Assembly (NCBI GenBank): GCA_944372195.1 | Contig: CALVYK010000006.1 | Location: forward strand, 3,458-67,457 | DNA: 64,000 nucleotides | Source of the DNA: an uncultured Bacilli bacterium | Lineage (GTDB): Bacteria; Bacillota_I; Bacilli_A; RF39; UBA660 | Direction: 5' to 3' | Shown: one piece after another, positions 16,119-29,445 of the stretch | How the letters are laid out: each line of letters starts with the position of its first letter | Position numbering within the stretch: the first letter of the stretch is position 1 | The notes under the pieces: model-generated | What the model was told of the DNA's origin: nothing | The model's input: the letters and a program-made list of their open reading frames with translations, nothing else | Databases searched by the model: none | Position numbers and translations under genes: made by a program

Positions 16119-16892
16119 ATGGATAAAAAATGCGGTCCAAGAATAAAATTAGATAATAAAAAGTTAAAAGCTTTATTTTCTGTGATGTTACAAGCACCAA
16201 CTCCAAAATATATAGCTTATGCATTAGGTATATCTAAAGTAGATACGGTAAGGTCATATATAGCTTCTGGCAATGCACTCATAGAAAAATTTGAAGAAGA
16301 ACTAGAACCATTAGATGATATTATACCAAATGAATTTGAACTTGTTTTTGAAGGTAGACAAGAAGAATTTGATGCAGAATTTCGTATTTTATATGGGTTA
16401 GAAAGTGATGCACAAATACCAGATAGATTAAATTTTAAATATGAACAATTTATATTAAATTCTAAAAGAAAATTTGTTGAAGGGCATATTGAACGCAAAG
16501 AAAAAGAAATACTTGATACTATTAAACTTTCTGATAACAAAGAATTAGATGAACAATATAAACTTTTAATAAGGTTTGCCCGTATTTACACTAGGGGTAA
16601 ATGTGTAGTAGAAATGGGCTTATTAAATAGCATTAACAAACATAGTGTTACTGCAAAAAATGTTTCATTAGGTTTCAAGCTCTTACAAACATATAATAAA
16701 GAAGATTTTGGAGAAGAACAAACAATTAGACATGAAGGTTCAATAGATTTTAATAATAAATCTATTTTAAGCATTGCTTTAAACTGGGAACAAGAGCAAA
16801 AAGAAAAAGCAAAAATGTTAGAACAAAAAAATAATAATATAATAGATGTTACCCCTACAAAACTAATAGAAGTTAAAAATGAAGATGAATAA
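16119..16892 (+). CDS. Hypothetical HTH-containing protein (regulator or small-terminase-like)
   Basis: 257-aa ORF in AT-rich DNA. It is the only plus-strand gene in a 45-kb minus-strand block. The N-terminus YIAYALGISKVDTVRSYI looks like an HTH. Confidence 0.5.
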   Translation: MDKKCGPRIKLDNKKLKALFSVMLQAPTPKYIAYALGISKVDTVRSYIASGNALIEKFEEELEPLDDIIPNEFELVFEGRQEEFDAEFRILYGLESDAQIPDRLNFKYEQFILNSKRKFVEGHIERKEKEILDTIKLSDNKELDEQYKLLIRFARIYTRGKCVVEMGLLNSINKHSVTAKNVSLGFKLLQTYNKEDFGEEQTIRHEGSIDFNNKSILSIALNWEQEQKEKAKMLEQKNNNIIDVTPTKLIEVKNEDE

Positions 16893-16899
16893 TACTTTA

Positions 16900-17154
16900 C
16901 TATTGTCTTTGTATTATTAATCTTACCTTAATATTATTAGCTAAATCATTATCTAAATTATCTAAATTATCTTTAGACTCTCTACAAAATTCATCTTTTT
17001 CTGGACTTCTTAATAAAATATTTTTAGCCTTTTTGTATTCATAAGATTTAATATCTTTTGTACTATTATAATTGTCAACCTCATTGCCTGTAAATTGGTT
17101 AGTACAAATAATATAACCATTTTTAGCAAAATAATCATATACTGGTCTTATCAT
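16900..17154 (-). CDS. Hypothetical protein
   Basis: Track ORF; abuts the previous gene. Confidence 0.5.
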   Translation of the reverse strand: MIRPVYDYFAKNGYIICTNQFTGNEVDNYNSTKDIKSYEYKKAKNILLRSPEKDEFCRESKDNLDNLDNDLANNIKVRLIIQRQ

Positions 17155-19972: not shown

Positions 19973-20852
19973 TTATTAATCCTTTGAAATTATTTAAATC
20001 TATCGACAAATTAAGTTTATTATGTTCACTATAATCATTAAATTTCTGAATTATATATTTATTAGCATTTTCCACATTATCTAAATTATTTAAAATTTTA
20101 TTATCACTATAATTTCCACCTATAAAAAATATTTTTTCTTTTTGAATTTTATTTAACATAAAATTTGTAAGAGAAGACATCCCTCGCCCATATGAAGATT
20201 CTTTATTTCTAATCACATCAACAGTTATAAATCCTATTTTTCTAAAATATTCAGGGGTGGAAATATAGGCAATATTGGCTATAGATAAATTTTTAGTATC
20301 AATTTTTACAGTATATAATACATCCATATCGTTTTGAATATTATATTCCATAACGTATAAATCTACGATACATTTATTTAATAAAAGAGTATTAATTAAA
20401 TTAGTTATTGCAATACCTCTATTAGATATTTGATTTGCAGTAGCTATACAACTAAAAGTAATATCTACAATTATCTTAACAAACTTATTCGGCTCTGATG
20501 AGCCTACATTTAAACAACATTCTGGATTTCCATTAACTACACTTTCCATATCATACGCAAAGCCTTCATAATCCATATAAAACCCAGTGTTATCATCTTT
20601 TGAATTTTTAACATTCACTACATAATCTAAGAAATAATTAGTATTATCTTCAAAACCATATTTTAATCCTTCTAGTGTAGATGAAAGTTTATGTTTTCCA
20701 TAAAACTCATCACTTTTATTAACTTCGCTAGGTGTTCCAAAAATGTTCAATTTTATGTGTGGACTAACGTAATTATATTGTTCTAATAAACTAGAAAAAT
20801 CAATGCATTTTATAGTCTTACCTTTATAAGTAATATTATATGGTTTAATCAT
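19947..20852 (-). CDS. Hypothetical protein, possible degenerate vWA partner of the AAA+ ATPase
   Basis: Abuts the ATPase gene (20852/20853). The strand VKIIVDITFSCIATA could be a degenerate MIDAS motif; this is weak. Confidence 0.3.
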   Translation of the reverse strand: MIKPYNITYKGKTIKCIDFSSLLEQYNYVSPHIKLNIFGTPSEVNKSDEFYGKHKLSSTLEGLKYGFEDNTNYFLDYVVNVKNSKDDNTGFYMDYEGFAYDMESVVNGNPECCLNVGSSEPNKFVKIIVDITFSCIATANQISNRGIAITNLINTLLLNKCIVDLYVMEYNIQNDMDVLYTVKIDTKNLSIANIAYISTPEYFRKIGFITVDVIRNKESSYGRGMSSLTNFMLNKIQKEKIFFIGGNYSDNKILNNLDNVENANKYIIQKFNDYSEHNKLNLSIDLNNFKGLINGKYKNKH

Positions 20853-22220
20853 TTAGCCCTCAATAACTACACTAGAAAATTCATCATCCTTTGTGCGAAT
20901 ATTAAATACAATTGGTTGTGGAAGCTTATCTGGAGTTTTTATTTTTTTAACTGATAAAAGATGTTCTGACATTTTTTTTAAAAAAATTACAGCACTTGGT
21001 GGAAATGCTATATCCATAAAGGTCTTTCTTGTATTCACAAGATAAAATGAATTTCCTAGACAATAAGACGATTTTGTGCTATTCTTTTCTGCACCATTTA
21101 AACTCAAATCTACGTTTAATTCCCAATCTATAAGTCGTTTTAAACAAAAATCTGTTTCTATACCTTCAACTTCAAATAAATTATTCATAAAATCTAATTC
21201 TATATGAATGGCATTGTTTAACACATTTGAACAATCATCTGTGTTTGAAATACATGATTTATTTTCAAAATCAATACCATCAGTTAGCTTAATTTTAACA
21301 TCCTCGTTTAATCCTTTAAATATACACATATCAAGAATTTCAAAGATATTAAACATTCCTGTATCTAAAAGGTCTGCACCATGCATAGAAGCTCTTGGCG
21401 ATATAATAACTTTAAGTTTAAATTTTTCTATATTTTTTCTCATTTTGTTAATACAATCTAACCAAAAATTGTTCTTTACCAAATCTTTTTCCATTTTACC
21501 GTCATAGCCTACATCAAAAGTTATAAATCTGTCTAAAGTAGCAGCGTCAAGTTTATTTCTACCTATGTATTCAAAAGAACCACCATTACCATAAGTATTA
21601 CAAGCTACTAAACAAATAAAATCTTTATTTTTATTAACAGTTTTATCTGGAAAACCTACTATATCATTCGCTAATACAGAATTTAAAATTGTTACTACAC
21701 CTGCATGTGCAGAGTCAAATTCATCTAAAAGTAATATACCACCCTTTTCAAAAGCCTCTCTAACAGGTGATGTTACATAATCACCTTTTGCATTAATAAA
21801 TCCCATTAAATCTGATTTTGTGGTTTGCAAACCAACTGACATAGGATAATAATTTAGTTTTAAAGCCTCTGCTATTTGTTTACACAAGGATGTTTTACCA
21901 GAACCACAAGGTCCAACTAGCATTATATTCTTTTCAATACGCTTTGCCGATTGTAATACATTTAATATTTTATTAAAATCCTTATGTACCACTTTATAAT
22001 CTGGTTTCTCTAGTGTCCCAACATTAACATTAGCAGGTAAAGCCTTAATCTGTGTTTCTAATTTTTTAATTTTTTCGTTTAGTTCTTCTGTTTTATTTTC
22101 TACTTCTTTATTAATTGTTTCATTAATTTTATCTAATTTTGATTTTATTAATTCTTTAACTTCTTTAATATTATCTTCTATAATTGCCGTTGAAATTAAA
22201 TCTTCTAAATTATTTTCCAT
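20853..22220 (-). CDS. MoxR/CobS-like AAA+ ATPase with N-terminal coiled coil
   Basis: Walker A LVGPCGSGKTSL, Walker B GILLLDEFD, sensor region ATLDRF. Confidence 0.8.
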   Translation of the reverse strand: MENNLEDLISTAIIEDNIKEVKELIKSKLDKINETINKEVENKTEELNEKIKKLETQIKALPANVNVGTLEKPDYKVVHKDFNKILNVLQSAKRIEKNIMLVGPCGSGKTSLCKQIAEALKLNYYPMSVGLQTTKSDLMGFINAKGDYVTSPVREAFEKGGILLLDEFDSAHAGVVTILNSVLANDIVGFPDKTVNKNKDFICLVACNTYGNGGSFEYIGRNKLDAATLDRFITFDVGYDGKMEKDLVKNNFWLDCINKMRKNIEKFKLKVIISPRASMHGADLLDTGMFNIFEILDMCIFKGLNEDVKIKLTDGIDFENKSCISNTDDCSNVLNNAIHIELDFMNNLFEVEGIETDFCLKRLIDWELNVDLSLNGAEKNSTKSSYCLGNSFYLVNTRKTFMDIAFPPSAVIFLKKMSEHLLSVKKIKTPDKLPQPIVFNIRTKDDEFSSVVIEG

Positions 22221-24246: not shown

Positions 24247-24849
24247 CTATCTTATATATTCTCTAAATTTTTTATACGAACCATCAAATCTATCTTCTAC
24301 TTCTTTTAATATCTGTGTGATATTAGAGTTAATTTTACGCAAAACATATTCATTATATTCGTTATCTCTAAGTTTTTTACGTCTTGGGTTGATTTTTTTA
24401 ATTTCCTCAAAAACTTCATTTTCTGGTATATTATATTCTTTCTGTAAATATAACATGGTGTCACTGTCTGATAATTCTTCAAAATTACACAATGGACATA
24501 AACATTCTGGTATATGACATCTAAAATCGCCATACCCTAATTCGTTTGAAATAAAATTAAAATCTTCAAATGTTAAATGGTCTATATCTATATGATTTTC
24601 TTTTATAAAATCATTTAATTCATTCTGTGAGATTTTTTCACCCTCACACAACCTTTTCAATATCATTTGTCCTTGTTCTTTTAGCGGTTTAAGTAGATGT
24701 TCTTCACATAGTTCATGTCCATTTTCGCATTCTACCATTTCTGCTTCTGATAAGCTCATATCCCATCCACTAATTCTATAACCACATACATCACACACAA
24801 AACTTGAACTTGATGAATTACTTACAAAACCCTGTCTGTATTTAGTCAT
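24247..24849 (-). CDS. GFVSNSSSSSF-motif protein C (200 aa, Cys/His-rich)
   Basis: N-terminus MTKYRQGFVSNSSSSSFV; RBS aaggag; additional CxxC / CxxxH clusters. Confidence 0.7.
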   Translation of the reverse strand: MTKYRQGFVSNSSSSSFVCDVCGYRISGWDMSLSEAEMVECENGHELCEEHLLKPLKEQGQMILKRLCEGEKISQNELNDFIKENHIDIDHLTFEDFNFISNELGYGDFRCHIPECLCPLCNFEELSDSDTMLYLQKEYNIPENEVFEEIKKINPRRKKLRDNEYNEYVLRKINSNITQILKEVEDRFDGSYKKFREYIR

Positions 24850-24860
24850 GCTAAACTCCT

Positions 24861-25193
24861 TTAATATTCTTCTTCATACTCTAAATCAAGTGCATCACAA
24901 ATATCTCTTATAGTTTCTTCTGCACCATATTCAACAGTAGCCAATAAAATATTTAAATCTTCCTTTAAGGCTCTAACCAAAATGCTAGAATCATCTTCTT
25001 TGCGCCAAGTTAGAAAATCTTCTACTGTATCATATCCTAATTCTTCTGTAACATATTCTTTGGCAGATAATACCTTAAAAATTGTTTCTATTAATTTTTT
25101 ACATTTTGGGCAATCAAAATCATTTTTATCGACTTTAACTATAAAACTACTACTTGATGAATTACTTACAAAACCTAATCTAATTTTTGCCAT
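24861..25193 (-). CDS. GFVSNSSSSSF-motif protein B (110 aa)
   Basis: N-terminus MAKIRLGFVSNSSSSSFI; RBS aaagga. Confidence 0.7.
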   Translation of the reverse strand: MAKIRLGFVSNSSSSSFIVKVDKNDFDCPKCKKLIETIFKVLSAKEYVTEELGYDTVEDFLTWRKEDDSSILVRALKEDLNILLATVEYGAEETIRDICDALDLEYEEEY

Positions 25194-25283
25194 ATATAAT
25201 CCTTTTATTTATTCCTATTTATTGTTTTATTATTATTTTTTATTATAACATATTTTTTATAAAATGTCAATAAAAGATGTTGA

Positions 25284-25724
25284 CTAGCAACATCTTTCAC
25301 CAGAGATAAATTTTATGTCATCATTAATATTTAATTTATCCTTAATTCCCTGTAAATCTTTTATAAAATCATTTGCTTCTAATATTATTGAAGAACTTGA
25401 AGCATAATTTATATCATTATTAGTATCTAATAAAAGTTTACCTAGCATATAAGTATACCCTTCTGGAACACCATCTTCATAATCAATACCTAAATATAAA
25501 TCTTGCTCATTTAAAAAATCACGAAATTCATATAGTTGGTCTCTAATAGCATCTTCTCTAGTATTTCCATATTCTTGAATGCATTTTTTTACGTATTCTT
25601 CATCAATTTCATAGCCAAGTGTTTTCATTAAATTTTCTAAATCTAGGTCTTCATCAAATAAATAGCCTACTAATAAAAAACTACTACTTGAACTATTGCT
25701 TACAAAGCCGATTCTACATTTCAT
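25284..25724 (-). CDS. GFVSNSSSSSF-motif protein A (146 aa)
   Basis: Track ORF 25284-25739. Start moved to MKCRIGFVSNSSSSSFL (RBS tgagggt). It overlaps the radical-SAM stop by 11 nt. Confidence 0.65.
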   Translation of the reverse strand: MKCRIGFVSNSSSSSFLLVGYLFDEDLDLENLMKTLGYEIDEEYVKKCIQEYGNTREDAIRDQLYEFRDFLNEQDLYLGIDYEDGVPEGYTYMLGKLLLDTNNDINYASSSSIILEANDFIKDLQGIKDKLNINDDIKFISGERCC

Positions 25725-26904
25725 CTTTATTACCCTCATTTAATCTATCGCATATATTTACATTAGAATAAACTAAACATTTTCTACATCCATTACAATC
25801 TTTTGTTTTAATACTTAGTTTACGATATTTATTCAATAAAGGATTATACCATACATCCTTAATAAAATCATCACAATTTAATACATCTATACCATCTTTC
25901 CATTCTCCTACGCCTTCTGCAAATGAACAAGGATAAAACCTTCCATCTACATTAATATAAGCGCTTTCTATACCAAAGCTTTCACAGCTTATAATACAAT
26001 CTTTAATCAGCTTTTCAAGCCCTAATTCTTTATAAACTTGATATAGAATACCACTTCCACAAGAATCAGAACCAATAGAAACATTAGATTTTATTGCATG
26101 CTCTATAACAGTTTTATAATCTTCAGGTGTTGGGACATGCATAGTATTTCTATTGCCTTTTTCTTTTAGTGTTAAAAATACGATGCTATTAAGACCTTTT
26201 AATCTTTCGTCATTCATTTTATCATCTATAACTTCAATACATCCCTTAATGGTTTCATGTGCTATTAACTGATGAATATTAATTTGTTTTAACGTATATC
26301 CGTCTTTATCTTTAAATTTAGATAATTTTTCTATAGCATTATAACACACATCTTTAGGTGAATATTTAGACACAGAAATTGCACCACATAGTTTAGCTAG
26401 TTTTTCAGCATATTCATCTGTTAAATTCCACCCATTTATAGTGATATTAGGAACAATACCTTGTGAACGTGTATATTCTAAAATATTCCATAAATCTGGA
26501 TTGCTATCTATATCGCCTATTCCACCTGCAATTTGACATATAGTTTTAGGTAATTTAGATAGTATTTTCTTATATGTATCTAAGCTCATATTTTTACCAC
26601 ATCCAGTATTACTTTTATAACAAAAACTACAAGGTGTACAAGTGTTATATGGGTCTTTAGTATCATATTTATTTAGATTGCCTATTCCATGACAAATTGT
26701 ACTCCACTCCATATCTAAAATATTTGGACCAAATATACAATATTCAGAGTCTAACTTTAGATTTTCACCCCAAGACATAAAAACACCATTTATTTTGTTA
26801 AAATTATAATTATATTCTTTTGACCTCATTAATTTTAAATATTCGTTTTCATATATTTTATAATTATCATAATTTTGAACTTTAATATCTTTAAGTAAAT
26901 TCAT
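25714..26904 (-). CDS. Radical SAM-like enzyme with C-terminal Cys cluster (SPASM/twitch-like)
   Basis: MEWSTIC-x20-CSFCY cluster, glycine-rich IAGGIGD, C-terminal CNGCRKCLVYSNVNIC; RBS agaggat. Confidence 0.6.
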   Translation of the reverse strand: MNLLKDIKVQNYDNYKIYENEYLKLMRSKEYNYNFNKINGVFMSWGENLKLDSEYCIFGPNILDMEWSTICHGIGNLNKYDTKDPYNTCTPCSFCYKSNTGCGKNMSLDTYKKILSKLPKTICQIAGGIGDIDSNPDLWNILEYTRSQGIVPNITINGWNLTDEYAEKLAKLCGAISVSKYSPKDVCYNAIEKLSKFKDKDGYTLKQINIHQLIAHETIKGCIEVIDDKMNDERLKGLNSIVFLTLKEKGNRNTMHVPTPEDYKTVIEHAIKSNVSIGSDSCGSGILYQVYKELGLEKLIKDCIISCESFGIESAYINVDGRFYPCSFAEGVGEWKDGIDVLNCDDFIKDVWYNPLLNKYRKLSIKTKDCNGCRKCLVYSNVNICDRLNEGNKDEM

Positions 26905-26934: not shown

Positions 26935-26963
26935 ATTATAACACAGATTGTGAACTTTGTCAA
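26935..26963 (-). promoter_or_regulatory. Promoter TTGACA-N17-TGtTATAAT for the radical-SAM operon
   Basis: -35 at 26958-26963, -10 at 26935-26940. Confidence 0.7.
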
Positions 26964-27016: not shown

Positions 27017-27106
27017 AAAACTTTAAACCTAATGTACACTTAGTTTATGAGAGATAATAATATATCTACATCACCGTTATAAATTTGTATTATACACCAT
27101 AAAATA

Positions 27107-27904
27107 CTATTTGTCAATATTTTTATAAAATTCTTCTGCTATATCAATAATTGATAATTGTTTAAGTTTATCTACAGGAATAGAACGCATTAAATTATAA
27201 ACATTAATTTCAAATTCATTTTTAAAAGATGGTCTCTTTTCACTACCACCTTCAATTTGGTGTTTAATACCACGCATATATTTCCAGAAATTATAATAGC
27301 AGGTTTTCATTTTAACTCTAAAGTTGTTAGTGTCTTGAATAACCCATCCTTCATGTCTTATAGAATAATCATTTTTAACAGATTGTCTCCATGAGTATAA
27401 ATCATCCCAATTGTTAAAAGTATAATCTAATACTTTACACTTAACTTTGAGTTCTTTAGCCAATTTCTGAACTTCTTCATATGGCATAAATTCATCTTCA
27501 AATTTATTTTTAACTATATCCAATAAAACTAATTGATTTTCACTATATCTGATAATATGTGGGTCTAAATCTTGATTAATACATTCAAAAATTAAAGTAC
27601 AATTATTGGTTTTACAAAATTCTTTTACCCTATTTTTAAAAGTCTTGTCAAGTTTATCTAATTCTTGTTTTATCATATTGACAAAATCTCCTTTATCAGT
27701 AGATTTTGACGCTATAAATAAATCATCTGTTTTAGGGTTATATGACATTAAGGCTAAAAATCCATTTTCTTTTTTAAAACAATATACAGGAAATAACAAT
27801 TTTTGTTTTAAAACTGCTGATTTCCAATCATAGCCATTTTCTGGAATATCATTTTTAATATCTATATTTAACTTCATTTTACTCTCACTTTCTAATATTA
27901 CCAT
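27107..27904 (-). CDS. RNA ligase, Rnl1-like catalytic portion
   Basis: Motif I FKKENGFLAL (compare T4 Rnl1 TKEDGSL), EGWVIQD, RVKMKTCYY. The N-terminal part of the domain lies in the preceding ORF. Confidence 0.7.
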   Translation of the reverse strand: MVILESESKMKLNIDIKNDIPENGYDWKSAVLKQKLLFPVYCFKKENGFLALMSYNPKTDDLFIASKSTDKGDFVNMIKQELDKLDKTFKNRVKEFCKTNNCTLIFECINQDLDPHIIRYSENQLVLLDIVKNKFEDEFMPYEEVQKLAKELKVKCKVLDYTFNNWDDLYSWRQSVKNDYSIRHEGWVIQDTNNFRVKMKTCYYNFWKYMRGIKHQIEGGSEKRPSFKNEFEINVYNLMRSIPVDKLKQLSIIDIAEEFYKNIDK

Positions 27905-29445
27905 CCAAAAAATTTATTATATCCTCTAGCTATTACTTCACCATTATCTTCATTAACAAATAAACCTCTAGCTTTACAAGTAAGGTTATCCCATTTACCT
28001 CTTTGGAATGCTTTTCTTGTAAAATTGTATGAAGCAATATTATTTTCTAATATTTTCTTTTGGATATTTTTTGATTTTTTTAATTGTGCTAAAATATCAT
28101 TTTGGTTTAAATCAAGGTCTAATTGTTGAGTTTCAGGCACAACTAAATTTTCGTCATAGACATTACTTGGTTGTAATATTTCTTTAACTGAATTATCTTC
28201 ATTAATTTCAATAATTCTAAGAAATTTACCATATTCTGGTTCATCACATAAATTATAAATTCTATCACTTGCTTTAATAGGCAATTTAAAAATATTTCTA
28301 TGTGAATGGATTTGGATATAGTTATCGGGTGTATTGTTGTTCCAAGAGTTATAAATTTCTTCTAAATTTTCATATTTTCCAACACCTTTTATAAACTCTT
28401 GTGTAGGAGTAAAGATGGTTGGAACATTAGGTAAACCGCCATGTGTAATAAGATATACATTTTTACCGAACTTAAAATAAGCCATTTGTGCTAATTTTCT
28501 ACAAAATTGTCTAAGACTTCCTTTATCAATATCTTGTATTTCGGGAATTGTCTTTTCTTTGAATAAAGAGCTTTTAATATTGTTTGAAGATAATTCATTT
28601 AACTGTGTTTTTGTTAAATATTTTTTAAATACCGCTTTATCTTCTAAGTCAATATTAACTTCTTTATATTCATTTGAACAATATTTCTTTAAATGAGCGC
28701 AATGATTGCCTTCTAAGATTAGAAAGTTTGGCTTATTCATATGTTCTAAAAGAAATTCTAATACCTCTTTATTTTGAATACCTCTATCTATATAATCACC
28801 AGTAAAAATATACTTATAACTATCATTAATAGGATTTGCTTTAAAATAGTCTTCAATTGGGGCAAAACAACCATGTACATCCCCAAAAACTACTATTTTT
28901 TTATATTCATTTGTAAAATCGTATAAAACATTTTGTTTTAATACTTCTAAAGCTTCATTACGATTTAAAATTGTAAATTTATTACTTACTTCTTTACAAC
29001 TTGCTATATTTTTTTCTGCTTCAAATACAGCATGCATTTTATGTAATACTTCTTCTGGTACGAATTTGTAAGAATCACGTTCTCTATTTCTTTTTAAACA
29101 TACATCTAAAGAAACATCAGTAAAATCTACAATATAAGCCCTATATCTGTATTTATCAATTAACTTTTTATATCTTGTTAAAAGTTCTTTTTTATAATGA
29201 GTAGCATTAACTATTACAAATTCACCTCGTTCCATACGTTGTTCAAGAATTTCAAATAACATAGTCCATACTTTACCATCATTTTTTTGAGTAATTTCAA
29301 GATTACCATTTAATGATGTAACGGGTGATTGAAGTAATAATCTTATATTGTCAGCAGAGAGTGAATACTGTTCTAAATTATTTTGTTTAATCCAATAATC
29401 TTTACCACTTGCTGGCATTCCACGTGTTAATAATAAAGTTCTCAT
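27898..29445 (-). CDS. Polynucleotide kinase-phosphatase (Pnkp) plus N-terminal part of the ligase domain
   Basis: P-loop TRGMPASGKD; phosphoesterase motifs VVFGDVHGC, GDYIDRG, EGNHC, ITHGG. The C-terminus FTRKAFQRGKWDNLTCKARGLF...GYNKFF resembles the Rnl1 N-terminal region. Confidence 0.8.
   Translation of the reverse strand: MRTLLLTRGMPASGKDYWIKQNNLEQYSLSADNIRLLLQSPVTSLNGNLEITQKNDGKVWTMLFEILEQRMERGEFVIVNATHYKKELLTRYKKLIDKYRYRAYIVDFTDVSLDVCLKRNRERDSYKFVPEEVLHKMHAVFEAEKNIASCKEVSNKFTILNRNEALEVLKQNVLYDFTNEYKKIVVFGDVHGCFAPIEDYFKANPINDSYKYIFTGDYIDRGIQNKEVLEFLLEHMNKPNFLILEGNHCAHLKKYCSNEYKEVNIDLEDKAVFKKYLTKTQLNELSSNNIKSSLFKEKTIPEIQDIDKGSLRQFCRKLAQMAYFKFGKNVYLITHGGLPNVPTIFTPTQEFIKGVGKYENLEEIYNSWNNNTPDNYIQIHSHRNIFKLPIKASDRIYNLCDEPEYGKFLRIIEINEDNSVKEILQPSNVYDENLVVPETQQLDLDLNQNDILAQLKKSKNIQKKILENNIASYNFTRKAFQRGKWDNLTCKARGLFVNEDNGEVIARGYNKFFGW

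Follow-up and report, generated by a model that had tools for sequence, protein, structure and literature searches.

What connects a putative radical S-adenosylmethionine (radical-SAM, rSAM) enzyme with three small proteins that begin with nearly the same peptide and share nothing recognizable behind it? This arrangement is encoded on the minus strand of a 64,000-nucleotide stretch of contig CALVYK010000006.1, assigned to an uncultured Bacilli bacterium; the whole stretch is referred to as the window. A reading of its letters alone, made before any database was searched (the sequence-only reading), had described four open reading frames (ORFs) of 396, 146, 110 and 200 amino acids (aa), the last three of which share the motif GFVSNSSSSSF. 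Coordinates and lengths of all four were correct, and a six-frame translation of the 64-kb window contains the motif exactly three times, at residues 6-17 of the three ORFs. From its ORF, from profile matches and from a structural model, the 396-aa protein (25714..26904; PHROG 7293) is predicted to have the fold of a SPASM/Twitch-type peptide or protein maturase. The gene is followed by tagged gene 1 (25284..25724; 146 aa, MKCRIGFVSNSSSSSF..., a member of an acidic "...SSF-x-x-G-Y/F" sub-family), tagged gene 2 (24861..25193; 110 aa, MAKIRLGFVSNSSSSSF...) and tagged gene 3 (24247..24849; 200 aa, MTKYRQGFVSNSSSSSFVCDVCG...), whose product consists of the tag, a Cys/His-rich (zinc-ribbon-like) module and a helical domain. 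The shared N-terminus, which we call the tag, is encoded at 25677..25724 (codons 1-16 of gene 1), 25143..25193 (codons 1-17 of gene 2, with one additional residue behind the Met) and 24799..24849 (codons 1-17 of gene 3). Our answer, to which we assign a probability of roughly 60%, is that these genes belong to a two-component phage module in which the rSAM enzyme modifies the shared N-terminal tag of mutually unrelated small proteins. Enzyme and tag are probably an unrecognized protein-modification system, and no earlier description of it was found in the literature searched.

Two sets of loci were used for comparison. Thirty viral contigs were picked by the motif alone, and 79 viral loci were picked by rSAM homology alone, with a search that was seeded with an 8-sequence subset; in the latter set, tags were counted within 10 kb. 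In nearly all of the tag-picked loci, small ORFs beginning with the motif are arrayed in tandem. Together with the window they contain 179 copies of the tag, 169 of which are unique, and the 16-residue consensus is M-K-[IV]-R-x-G-F-V-S-N-S-S-[ST]-[ST]-S-F (as a free-standing peptide, MKIRNGFVSNSSSSSFVV). In an alignment of 150 sequences, K2, N10, S11 and S12 are invariant, and M1, R4, G6, F7, V8, S9, S15 and F16 are conserved to at least 90%. Position 7 is F or W in all 150, position 8 is V or I and position 9 is S or T; the mean column identity of the whole alignment is 8%. Glycine is residue 6 in 166 of the 169 unique proteins. Thr substitutes for Ser at positions 9, 13 and 14 and never at 11 or 12, and no Glu occurs at positions 1-16 in the 131 copies tabulated. 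A relaxed tag pattern had 307 matches in the 1.51 Mb of enzyme-picked loci and 1-5 in shuffled sequence, which excludes chance as the source of the motif.

The spacing of the tag from the N-terminus appears to be maintained even where the sequence departs from the consensus. An extra residue follows the Met in two of the window proteins (MAKIR.. and MTKYR..) and in a 95% identical homologue of protein 1 (MAKYR..), and in all three it is Ala or Thr. Given the established specificity of methionine aminopeptidase, removal of the Met would restore the spacing of the tag from the mature N-terminus. Other identities considered for the tag were rejected. A Sec or lipoprotein signal peptide would need a longer hydrophobic stretch. 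A glycyl-radical motif does not fit in spacing (R-x-G-F versus R-V-x-G-Y), G6 can be replaced by D, S, C or A, and the activases of glycyl-radical enzymes have no SPASM domains. An amyloid signalling motif was dismissed, as the enzyme does not carry the motif.

The sequence-only reading had quoted the Ser and Asn codons of each copy correctly and had concluded that selection acts on the peptide and not on a DNA repeat, a conclusion that was upheld on 131 copies. One might still suspect that the conserved 48 nucleotides are a recombination, regulatory or translation-initiation element, and they do sit at the 5' end of every gene, right behind the ribosome-binding site. However, over codons 1-16 the mean nucleotide identity is just 0.66-0.70, and that of third positions 0.48-0.53, with a peptide that is almost invariant. 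At every Ser position, TCN as well as AGY codons occur, two types separated by no fewer than two mutations. Because each of these positions mixes the two codon types, selection must act at the level of the peptide, and the codon analysis excludes a nucleic-acid element for all practical purposes.

Behind the tag, the proteins are extremely diverse. The sequences there form 138 BLAST clusters among 479 unique proteins (the median length of a tagged ORF is ~126-128 aa), and HHalign comparisons of the 13 largest clusters with the tag removed revealed no relationship, with the exception of one weak pair. A common domain, for which D/G/D columns and an "SDNDG" element in the family-wide MAFFT alignment were candidates, was discarded, being unsupported by HHalign between sub-families. 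The three window proteins had rightly been called unrelated beyond the motif (with the tag removed, they have no mutual match at E <= 1), but the term "paralogs" claimed too much, since kinship beyond the tag is not demonstrable. Protein 1 has a few relatives beyond the tag, and protein 2 has none in 120 database matches, in 169 locus members (tag removed) or in GenBank phages. Protein 3 belongs to a sub-family with 37 database relatives and members in 13 of the first 30 loci. Its conserved motifs are CxxC...C-x2-GH-x2-C-x2-H and CPxC; C19, C22, C41, C48, C118 and C121 are invariant, and G44-H45 nearly so. In the AlphaFold model of protein 3, the predicted local distance difference test score (pLDDT) is 92.5 overall and averages 46 over residues 1-10, with a strand at residues 14-18. 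The model has no significant Foldseek neighbour in PDB or BFVD, and it may represent a new zinc-binding fold.

The motif had been reported as belonging to no family that the sequence-only reading could name, and the database searches bear this out. None of the three tagged window proteins matches Pfam or NCBIfam at the curated cut-off (sub-threshold Pfam matches have E values of 0.019-0.27 and scores of 12-15 bits), 150 tagged locus members showed no consistent Pfam family when scanned, and none of the best 120 database matches of the tag family has a precomputed Pfam domain. Only phrog_7397 ("unknown function") was matched, by protein 2 at 2e-5, protein 1 at 1e-3 and protein 3 at 0.09, as well as by 81 of 150 tagged proteins, mostly through the N-terminus. 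How many relatives are found depends on the search. Protein 1 by itself retrieved only the 95% identical copy from a large protein database, a word-seeded search with the 150-sequence alignment yielded 1,314 relatives, and an exhaustive profile search of 1.84 billion representatives yielded 25,558 cluster representatives at E <= 1e-3, of which 4,077 reach E <= 1e-10. By this count the tag family is very large, and those of its members that were examined are unannotated. Searches of 50,697 phage records by blastn with the region and by tblastn with the three tagged proteins gave no match, probably because the low-complexity filter masks the tag and the remainder is too divergent.

Among 185,579 species genomes, the tag is present on 18 contigs of metagenome-assembled genomes (MAGs) only and in no isolate genome, and the tag family thus looks viral. 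Some of the contigs with tag arrays are binned as Nanoarchaeota, Woesearchaeota, Verrucomicrobia and similar groups, and four loci (L118, L119, L122 and L132) lie on contigs of one "Nanoarchaeota" MAG that are up to 249 kb long; these are probably large phage contigs that have been mis-binned. In some database proteins (P0002, P0249-P0254, P0257 and P0279), the tag profile has two matches apart from each other. In P0002 (230 aa), the best-scoring stretch begins at residue 111 and exists in addition to the N-terminal tag. Such double matches could be fused tandem copies, read-through, or array neighbours merged by gene calling.

The co-occurrence of motif and rSAM gene, suggested for follow-up by the sequence-only reading, is very strong from whichever side the loci are picked. 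Tagged ORFs, between 1 and 13 of them, lie within 10 kb in 71 of the 79 enzyme-picked loci. All 305 tagged ORFs counted there are on the strand of the enzyme, 265 downstream and 40 upstream. Conversely, the enzyme is found on the same strand, usually directly upstream, in 23 of the 30 tag-picked loci; of the seven others, two are cut by the contig end and one (L016) shares its contig with an enzyme-bearing locus (L012). When the ORFs of all 109 loci were clustered, only the rSAM enzyme (101 loci) and the tag sub-families were conserved, and the next family, dUTPase, was present in 14 loci. The pairing recurs in over a hundred phage genomes, as a two-component module in otherwise unrelated genomic contexts. 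Host contigs are anywhere between less than 10 kb and 548 kb long, and the module is therefore common in jumbo phages. The size of the arrays varies, with 15 tagged ORFs in 16 kb in one locus (L020) and 13 downstream of a single rSAM gene in another (L112); L004 and L054 are further examples.

The module is also present in cultured phages. Of the 50,697 phage records, 173 encode the enzyme; they comprise Slopekvirus, Pseudotevenvirus and relatives, plus Vibrio phage D479. In Enterobacter phage phiEap-3, a T4-like Slopekvirus, there is no tagged gene near the rSAM gene gp161. A scan of the whole genome, however, detected two tagged genes, gp113 and gp118 (MKIRSGFVSNSSSSSF...; 16640-17110 and 20493-21008 of locus L035), ~20 kb from gp161 and on the same strand. 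Homologues of gp118, labelled "hypothetical protein" in nearly all listed records, were found in 175 of the 50,697 records, with genus counts near-identical to those of the enzyme, and the records with both families include Escherichia phages RB16 and phT4A and Klebsiella phage KP15. In Vibrio phage D479, a single tagged ORF lies 1.4 kb upstream of the enzyme.

In addition, the tag differs where the enzyme differs. By far the most divergent enzyme (27% identity, locus L021) is accompanied by eight tags, all of which have T9 and seven of which have D6 (K-D-F-V-T-N). Among the 103 loci compared, this locus alone has T9. In a further locus (L066), position 6 is Ser or Ala in all three tags. These sequences suggest that the tag evolves together with the enzyme, which fits a maturase-substrate pair.

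What kind of enzyme would act on such a tag? The Pfam model Radical_SAM (PF04055) scores below threshold in the window enzyme (25.4 bits against a cut-off of 29.5, E 1.8e-5), and most of its database homologues have a precomputed match to PF04055. The SPASM model (PF13186) reaches 21.9 bits against a cut-off of 21.5, and phrog_7293 ("unknown function") matches residues 15-381 at 1.7e-74. NCBIfam yielded only weak rSAM matches, the best being TIGR04317 with 34 bits against a cut-off of 380, and no model of anaerobic sulfatase-maturating enzymes (anSMEs) was among the matches at E <= 1. All of these NCBIfam matches are far below their cut-offs. The enzyme family has at least 1,888 members, known just as "radical SAM protein".

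The AlphaFold (AF2) model of the enzyme (pLDDT 91.5) contains the partial (beta/alpha)6 TIM-barrel core by which the radical-SAM superfamily is recognized, and model and alignment show a conserved five-stranded beta domain (residues 8-45) ahead of the barrel. When the model was compared to PDB with Foldseek, the top 43 matches were all radical-SAM enzymes (probability 1.00). The best neighbours were SuiB (3e-9, template modelling score 0.63), CteB, TigE, anSMEcpe (7.5e-8), SkfB and ChlB, followed by DesII, viperin, PqqE, BlsE, NifB, AbmM and PFL-AE. SuiB, CteB, anSMEcpe, SkfB and ChlB all have peptides or proteins as their substrates. By sequence, the PDB proteins nearest to the family profile are SkfB (1e-4) and, on the C-terminal region, BtrN (3e-4). 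Designed pentatricopeptide repeat proteins, the top PDB sequence matches of the rSAM profile, were set aside as an artefact of many weak repeated segments. Judging from profiles and model, the enzyme belongs to the SPASM/Twitch class of peptide and protein maturases and is remote from every characterized member.

The cysteines had been described as an atypical split cluster, C-x20-C-x2-C, together with a C-terminal CNGCRKC...C cluster. The pattern, C71-x20-C92-x2-C95, is correct, and its three cysteines are invariant throughout two alignments, one of 24 and one of 81 homologues. In the radical-SAM superfamily, such a triad (canonically CX3CX2C) ligates the SAM-binding [4Fe-4S] cluster. The unusual spacing, however, is due to a 17-residue insertion after the first Cys that is particular to the window protein and is modelled with low confidence; many homologues have a canonical CX3CX2C. 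Likewise, CNGCRKC is present near the C-terminus, but its cysteines are not conserved across the family. Only C282, C307, C326 and C376 are invariant among the C-terminal cysteines in both alignments, and these four are enough for one auxiliary cluster. A full SPASM signature comprises seven Cys for two auxiliary clusters; the shortened Twitch version has one cluster. The rSAM gene also seems to attract mobile endonucleases. A homing endonuclease lies directly downstream of it in Vibrio phage D479 (6076-6804 of locus L001). In Cronobacter phage vB_CsaM_leB, the match to the rSAM gene (92109-93322) falls into two parts, annotated as two "radical SAM protein" coding sequences, and a split Slopekvirus rSAM gene beside a GIY-YIG endonuclease has been reported in phage Kpn35c1 (PMC9960720).

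Based on these results, the following sequence of events can be proposed. The module would be expressed from strong host-type, early-looking promoters. The tag would be an N-terminal peptide, free and flexible, whose distance from the N-terminus is fixed, and the enzyme would bind it, probably by recognizing K2, R4 and G6-F7-V8. A 5'-deoxyadenosyl radical, generated with the [4Fe-4S] cluster and SAM, would then abstract a hydrogen within the invariant N10-S11-S12 or within F7-V8-S9. As N10 is invariant and Thr never replaces S11 or S12, we infer that the chemistry centres on N10-S12. The resulting covalent modification could be an oxidation of Ser to an aldehyde, a crosslink from an aromatic ring to C-beta, or an epimerization. 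The oxidation is a candidate because anSME and BtrN are dehydrogenases and BtrN has a single auxiliary cluster; the crosslink is one because F7-V8-S9 formally fits the triceptide motif and the triceptide enzyme ChlB is a structural neighbour. One enzyme would thereby place the same modified N-terminus on many different phage effector domains. Strong comparative evidence supports the suggestion of the sequence-only reading that the motif is functionally tied to the rSAM enzyme and is probably its recognition or modification site. Neither of the two outcomes that this reading had named as refuting was found, as the motif belongs to no characterized family and the gene neighbourhood is conserved.

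Several observations weigh against a modification of the tag by the enzyme. There is no tag within 10 kb in 8 of the 79 enzyme-picked loci, and no rSAM gene within 8 kb in four of the tag-picked loci (L007, L019, L020 and L022). No protease, exporter or transporter family is conserved across the 109 loci, and no recognition element of the PqqD/RRE type, as used for peptides that are made by ribosomes and modified after translation (RiPPs), was detected in the enzyme by the Pfam scan. With only four invariant C-terminal cysteines, it is not a textbook SPASM enzyme. Finally, the strict invariance of the poly-Ser segment is also compatible with a pure binding motif.

In a rival explanation, the tag is an adaptor, that is, a peptide that docks into the enzyme while the variable C-terminal domain recruits a host protein, a nucleic acid or a metabolite, or regulates the enzyme. 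Linkage and co-variation also fit it, and the extreme C-terminal diversity (138 clusters in 479 proteins) and the disorder of the tag in the model are in its favour. The conserved five-stranded beta domain of the enzyme (residues 8-45) could, as modelled, accept a strand. However, it is not obvious why the N-S-S core of a docking strand should be invariant and its distance from the N-terminus fixed, and all of the enzymes nearest in structure take the bound peptide itself as their substrate. We thus regard an adaptor as unlikely. A second rival is a sorting signal that is read by some other factor, for packaging into the capsid and injection, for localization, degradation or secretion, with an enzyme that merely co-travels in a mobile cassette of early genes. 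Such a signal would resemble the T4 internal-protein locus with its tandem small, fast-evolving proteins and their common N-terminal peptide, the genes do lie behind strong host-type promoters, and in Slopekvirus they are ~20 kb away from the enzyme. But in 90% of the rSAM loci the tagged genes share the strand of the enzyme and mostly lie right downstream of it, enzyme and tag families are distributed alike among cultured phages, and the tags change along with a divergent enzyme. Moreover, the tag has no Glu-type prohead-protease site, and its hydrophobic stretch is too short for Sec or lipoprotein export, which makes a sorting signal quite improbable.

The sequence-only reading had also considered a shared catalytic N-terminal strand. 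In its most specific form, the tag would be the N-terminal strand and the phosphate- or anion-binding loop of a common small fold, and the rSAM enzyme might mature a catalytic residue. Comparable loops are the strand and C-x5-R of low-molecular-weight phosphatases and the SGGxDS PP-loop. S9-x5-S15 has the length of the C-x5-R P-loop, the model has a beta strand at residues 14-18, an element "[YF]-[SGA]-D-[ND]-[DE]-G" recurs in several sub-families, and anSME, which matures the catalytic residue of sulfatases, is among the structural neighbours of the enzyme. This explanation is weakened by the unrelated C-terminal parts, since the absence of any profile-profile relationship between 13 tag-removed sub-families argues against a common fold. 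Protein 3 is a zinc-ribbon-like module with a helical domain that has no structural neighbour, tag residues 1-10 are unstructured in the model, and there is no consistent Pfam or NCBIfam family. A catalytic loop thus has little to recommend it, and we retain modification of the tag by the enzyme as the preferred explanation.

Among known systems, the one that enzyme and tag would resemble most in the way they work is that of the anSMEs (AtsB, ChuR and anSMEcpe) with their sulfatases. There, too, an rSAM enzyme with one or more C-terminal auxiliary Fe-S clusters acts on a short Ser/Cys motif near the N-terminus of full-size proteins, one maturase serves many substrate proteins per genome, and anSMEcpe is a clear structural neighbour of the enzyme model (E 7.5e-8). 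On the other hand, GFVSNSSSSSF contains no (C/S)-x-(P/A)-x-R, and the tagged proteins have no sulfatase domain. The tag occupies the extreme N-terminus of small proteins that are unrelated, phages encode the system, and only four auxiliary cysteines are invariant. The comparison with anSMEs made in the sequence-only reading thus fails at the family level, as both the substrate motif and matches to the curated enzyme models are absent. BtrN, a Twitch-domain radical-SAM dehydrogenase, and SkfB, which the family profile matches best by sequence among PDB proteins, have a single auxiliary cluster in a shortened SPASM-like domain, a cluster for which the four invariant C-terminal cysteines of the enzyme would be enough. 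The similarity is remote, however; the substrate of BtrN is an aminoglycoside intermediate, and the window enzyme has extra cysteines (CNGCRKC) beyond those of the family.

The gene arrangement is reminiscent of RiPP systems (SuiB/SuiA for streptide, CteB and SkfB for sactipeptides, ChlB/ChlA for triceptides, and the prochlorosin-type logic of one enzyme for many precursors). In them, one radical-SAM/SPASM maturase serves several precursors with a common leader, and a RiPP precursor is a short peptide of leader and core that a protease releases, that is exported, or both. These likewise combine a conserved N-terminus with a variable C-terminal part and tandem arrays of substrate genes beside the enzyme, and SuiB, CteB, SkfB and ChlB are the best structural matches. 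In contrast, the variable part of the tagged proteins is a folded domain of 70-210 aa (pLDDT 92.5 for protein 3) instead of a short core peptide, the likely target is the conserved segment itself, no RRE or PqqD domain was detected, and there is no conserved protease or exporter. The triceptide motif is aromatic-X-X, with a crosslink from the aromatic ring to C-beta (PMC11499958). F7-V8-S9 of the tag fits it formally, and ChlB is a structural neighbour, though not the closest.

A resemblance in layout only exists to the T4 internal proteins (IPI-III and the hypervariable IP locus), which are tandem, small, diversifying proteins with a short conserved N-terminal peptide; tagged proteins occur in T4-like phages as well. 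The T4 capsid-targeting sequence ends in the prohead-protease site Leu/Ile-x-Glu. The tag has a different sequence without a Glu-type site, and its conserved partner is a radical-SAM enzyme. In the PHROG database, the enzyme (PHROG 7293) and the tagged proteins (PHROG 7397) are both listed with "unknown function", and neither their link nor the tag is recorded there.

If the enzyme does modify the tag, phages apply rSAM protein modification to whole sets of their own small proteins, the chemistry on a Ser/Asn-rich peptide would be new for radical-SAM enzymes, and the finding would offer a way into many "hypothetical" genes that T4-like and jumbo phages have in their hypervariable regions. A wider claim, which we advance only tentatively and would not yet rely on, is that of a general N-terminal tag modification pathway in large phages, which places a new covalent modification on dozens of unrelated effectors per genome. 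In that case, the effectors would owe their function to the modified N-terminus, which could for example be a warhead (reactive or crosslinked), a cap that stabilizes against host proteolysis or a delivery handle, and this would amount to a post-translational biology of phages that is neither RiPP nor sulfatase-type maturation. There is a substantial chance that both the chemistry and the biology are new. A 16-residue tag and one enzyme could also serve as a tool for protein engineering. Due to the presence of the system in cultured phages with laboratory hosts (RB16, phT4A and KP15), the hypothesis is directly testable.

As to the organization of the genes in the window, the sequence-only reading had assumed one promoter for all four genes. 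The promoter it had proposed 5' of the rSAM gene (26935..26963, minus strand) is indeed a 12/12 match to the sigma-70-type consensus TTGACA-17-TATAAT, with an extended -10 TG. However, a terminator-like hairpin with a 15-pair stem, a 5-base loop and a T-rich tail (25268..25302, minus strand) follows tagged gene 1, and a second perfect promoter of the sigma-70 type (25242..25270, minus strand; 12/12 TTGACA-17-TATAAT) precedes tagged genes 2 and 3. Because hairpin and second promoter separate tagged genes 1 and 2, there are two transcription units instead of one, the first consisting of promoter, enzyme, tagged gene 1 and hairpin, and the second of promoter and tagged genes 2 and 3. Translational coupling was also claimed too broadly. 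The start of tagged gene 1 overlaps the rSAM gene by 11 nucleotides (25714-25724), as had been noted, and this gene is coupled to the enzyme, but genes 2 and 3 are not. By comparison with the family, tagged protein 1 starts at the ATG at 25724 and not at 25739.

With a further one at 27089-27117, three 12/12 TTGACA-17-TATAAT promoters are located within 1.9 kb on the minus strand, two of them with the extended -10 TG, and the trio looks like a cluster of strong early promoters for the host RNA polymerase. Perfect host-type promoters and, in T4-like phages, a setting among small hypothetical genes suggest early expression, as would be typical of host-takeover or counter-defence genes.

The window is AT-rich (G+C ~25%), and its genes are on the minus strand up to ~50 kb. 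Both GC skew and AT skew reverse their sign twice, near 50 kb and near 62 kb, where the coding strand switches. A 119-kb metagenomic scaffold matches the window and contains phage-type genes, namely those for a T4-type RNA ligase, a metallophosphatase and an AAA ATPase. In the window, two minus-strand ORFs at 27107-27904 (265 aa) and 27898-29445 (515 aa) overlap each other, and the former has a T4 RNA-ligase-1 domain. Both cluster with one and the same 756-aa ORF of another phage contig (10979-13249 of locus L005), and the pair may represent a kinase/phosphatase-ligase gene, split or frameshifted in the window.

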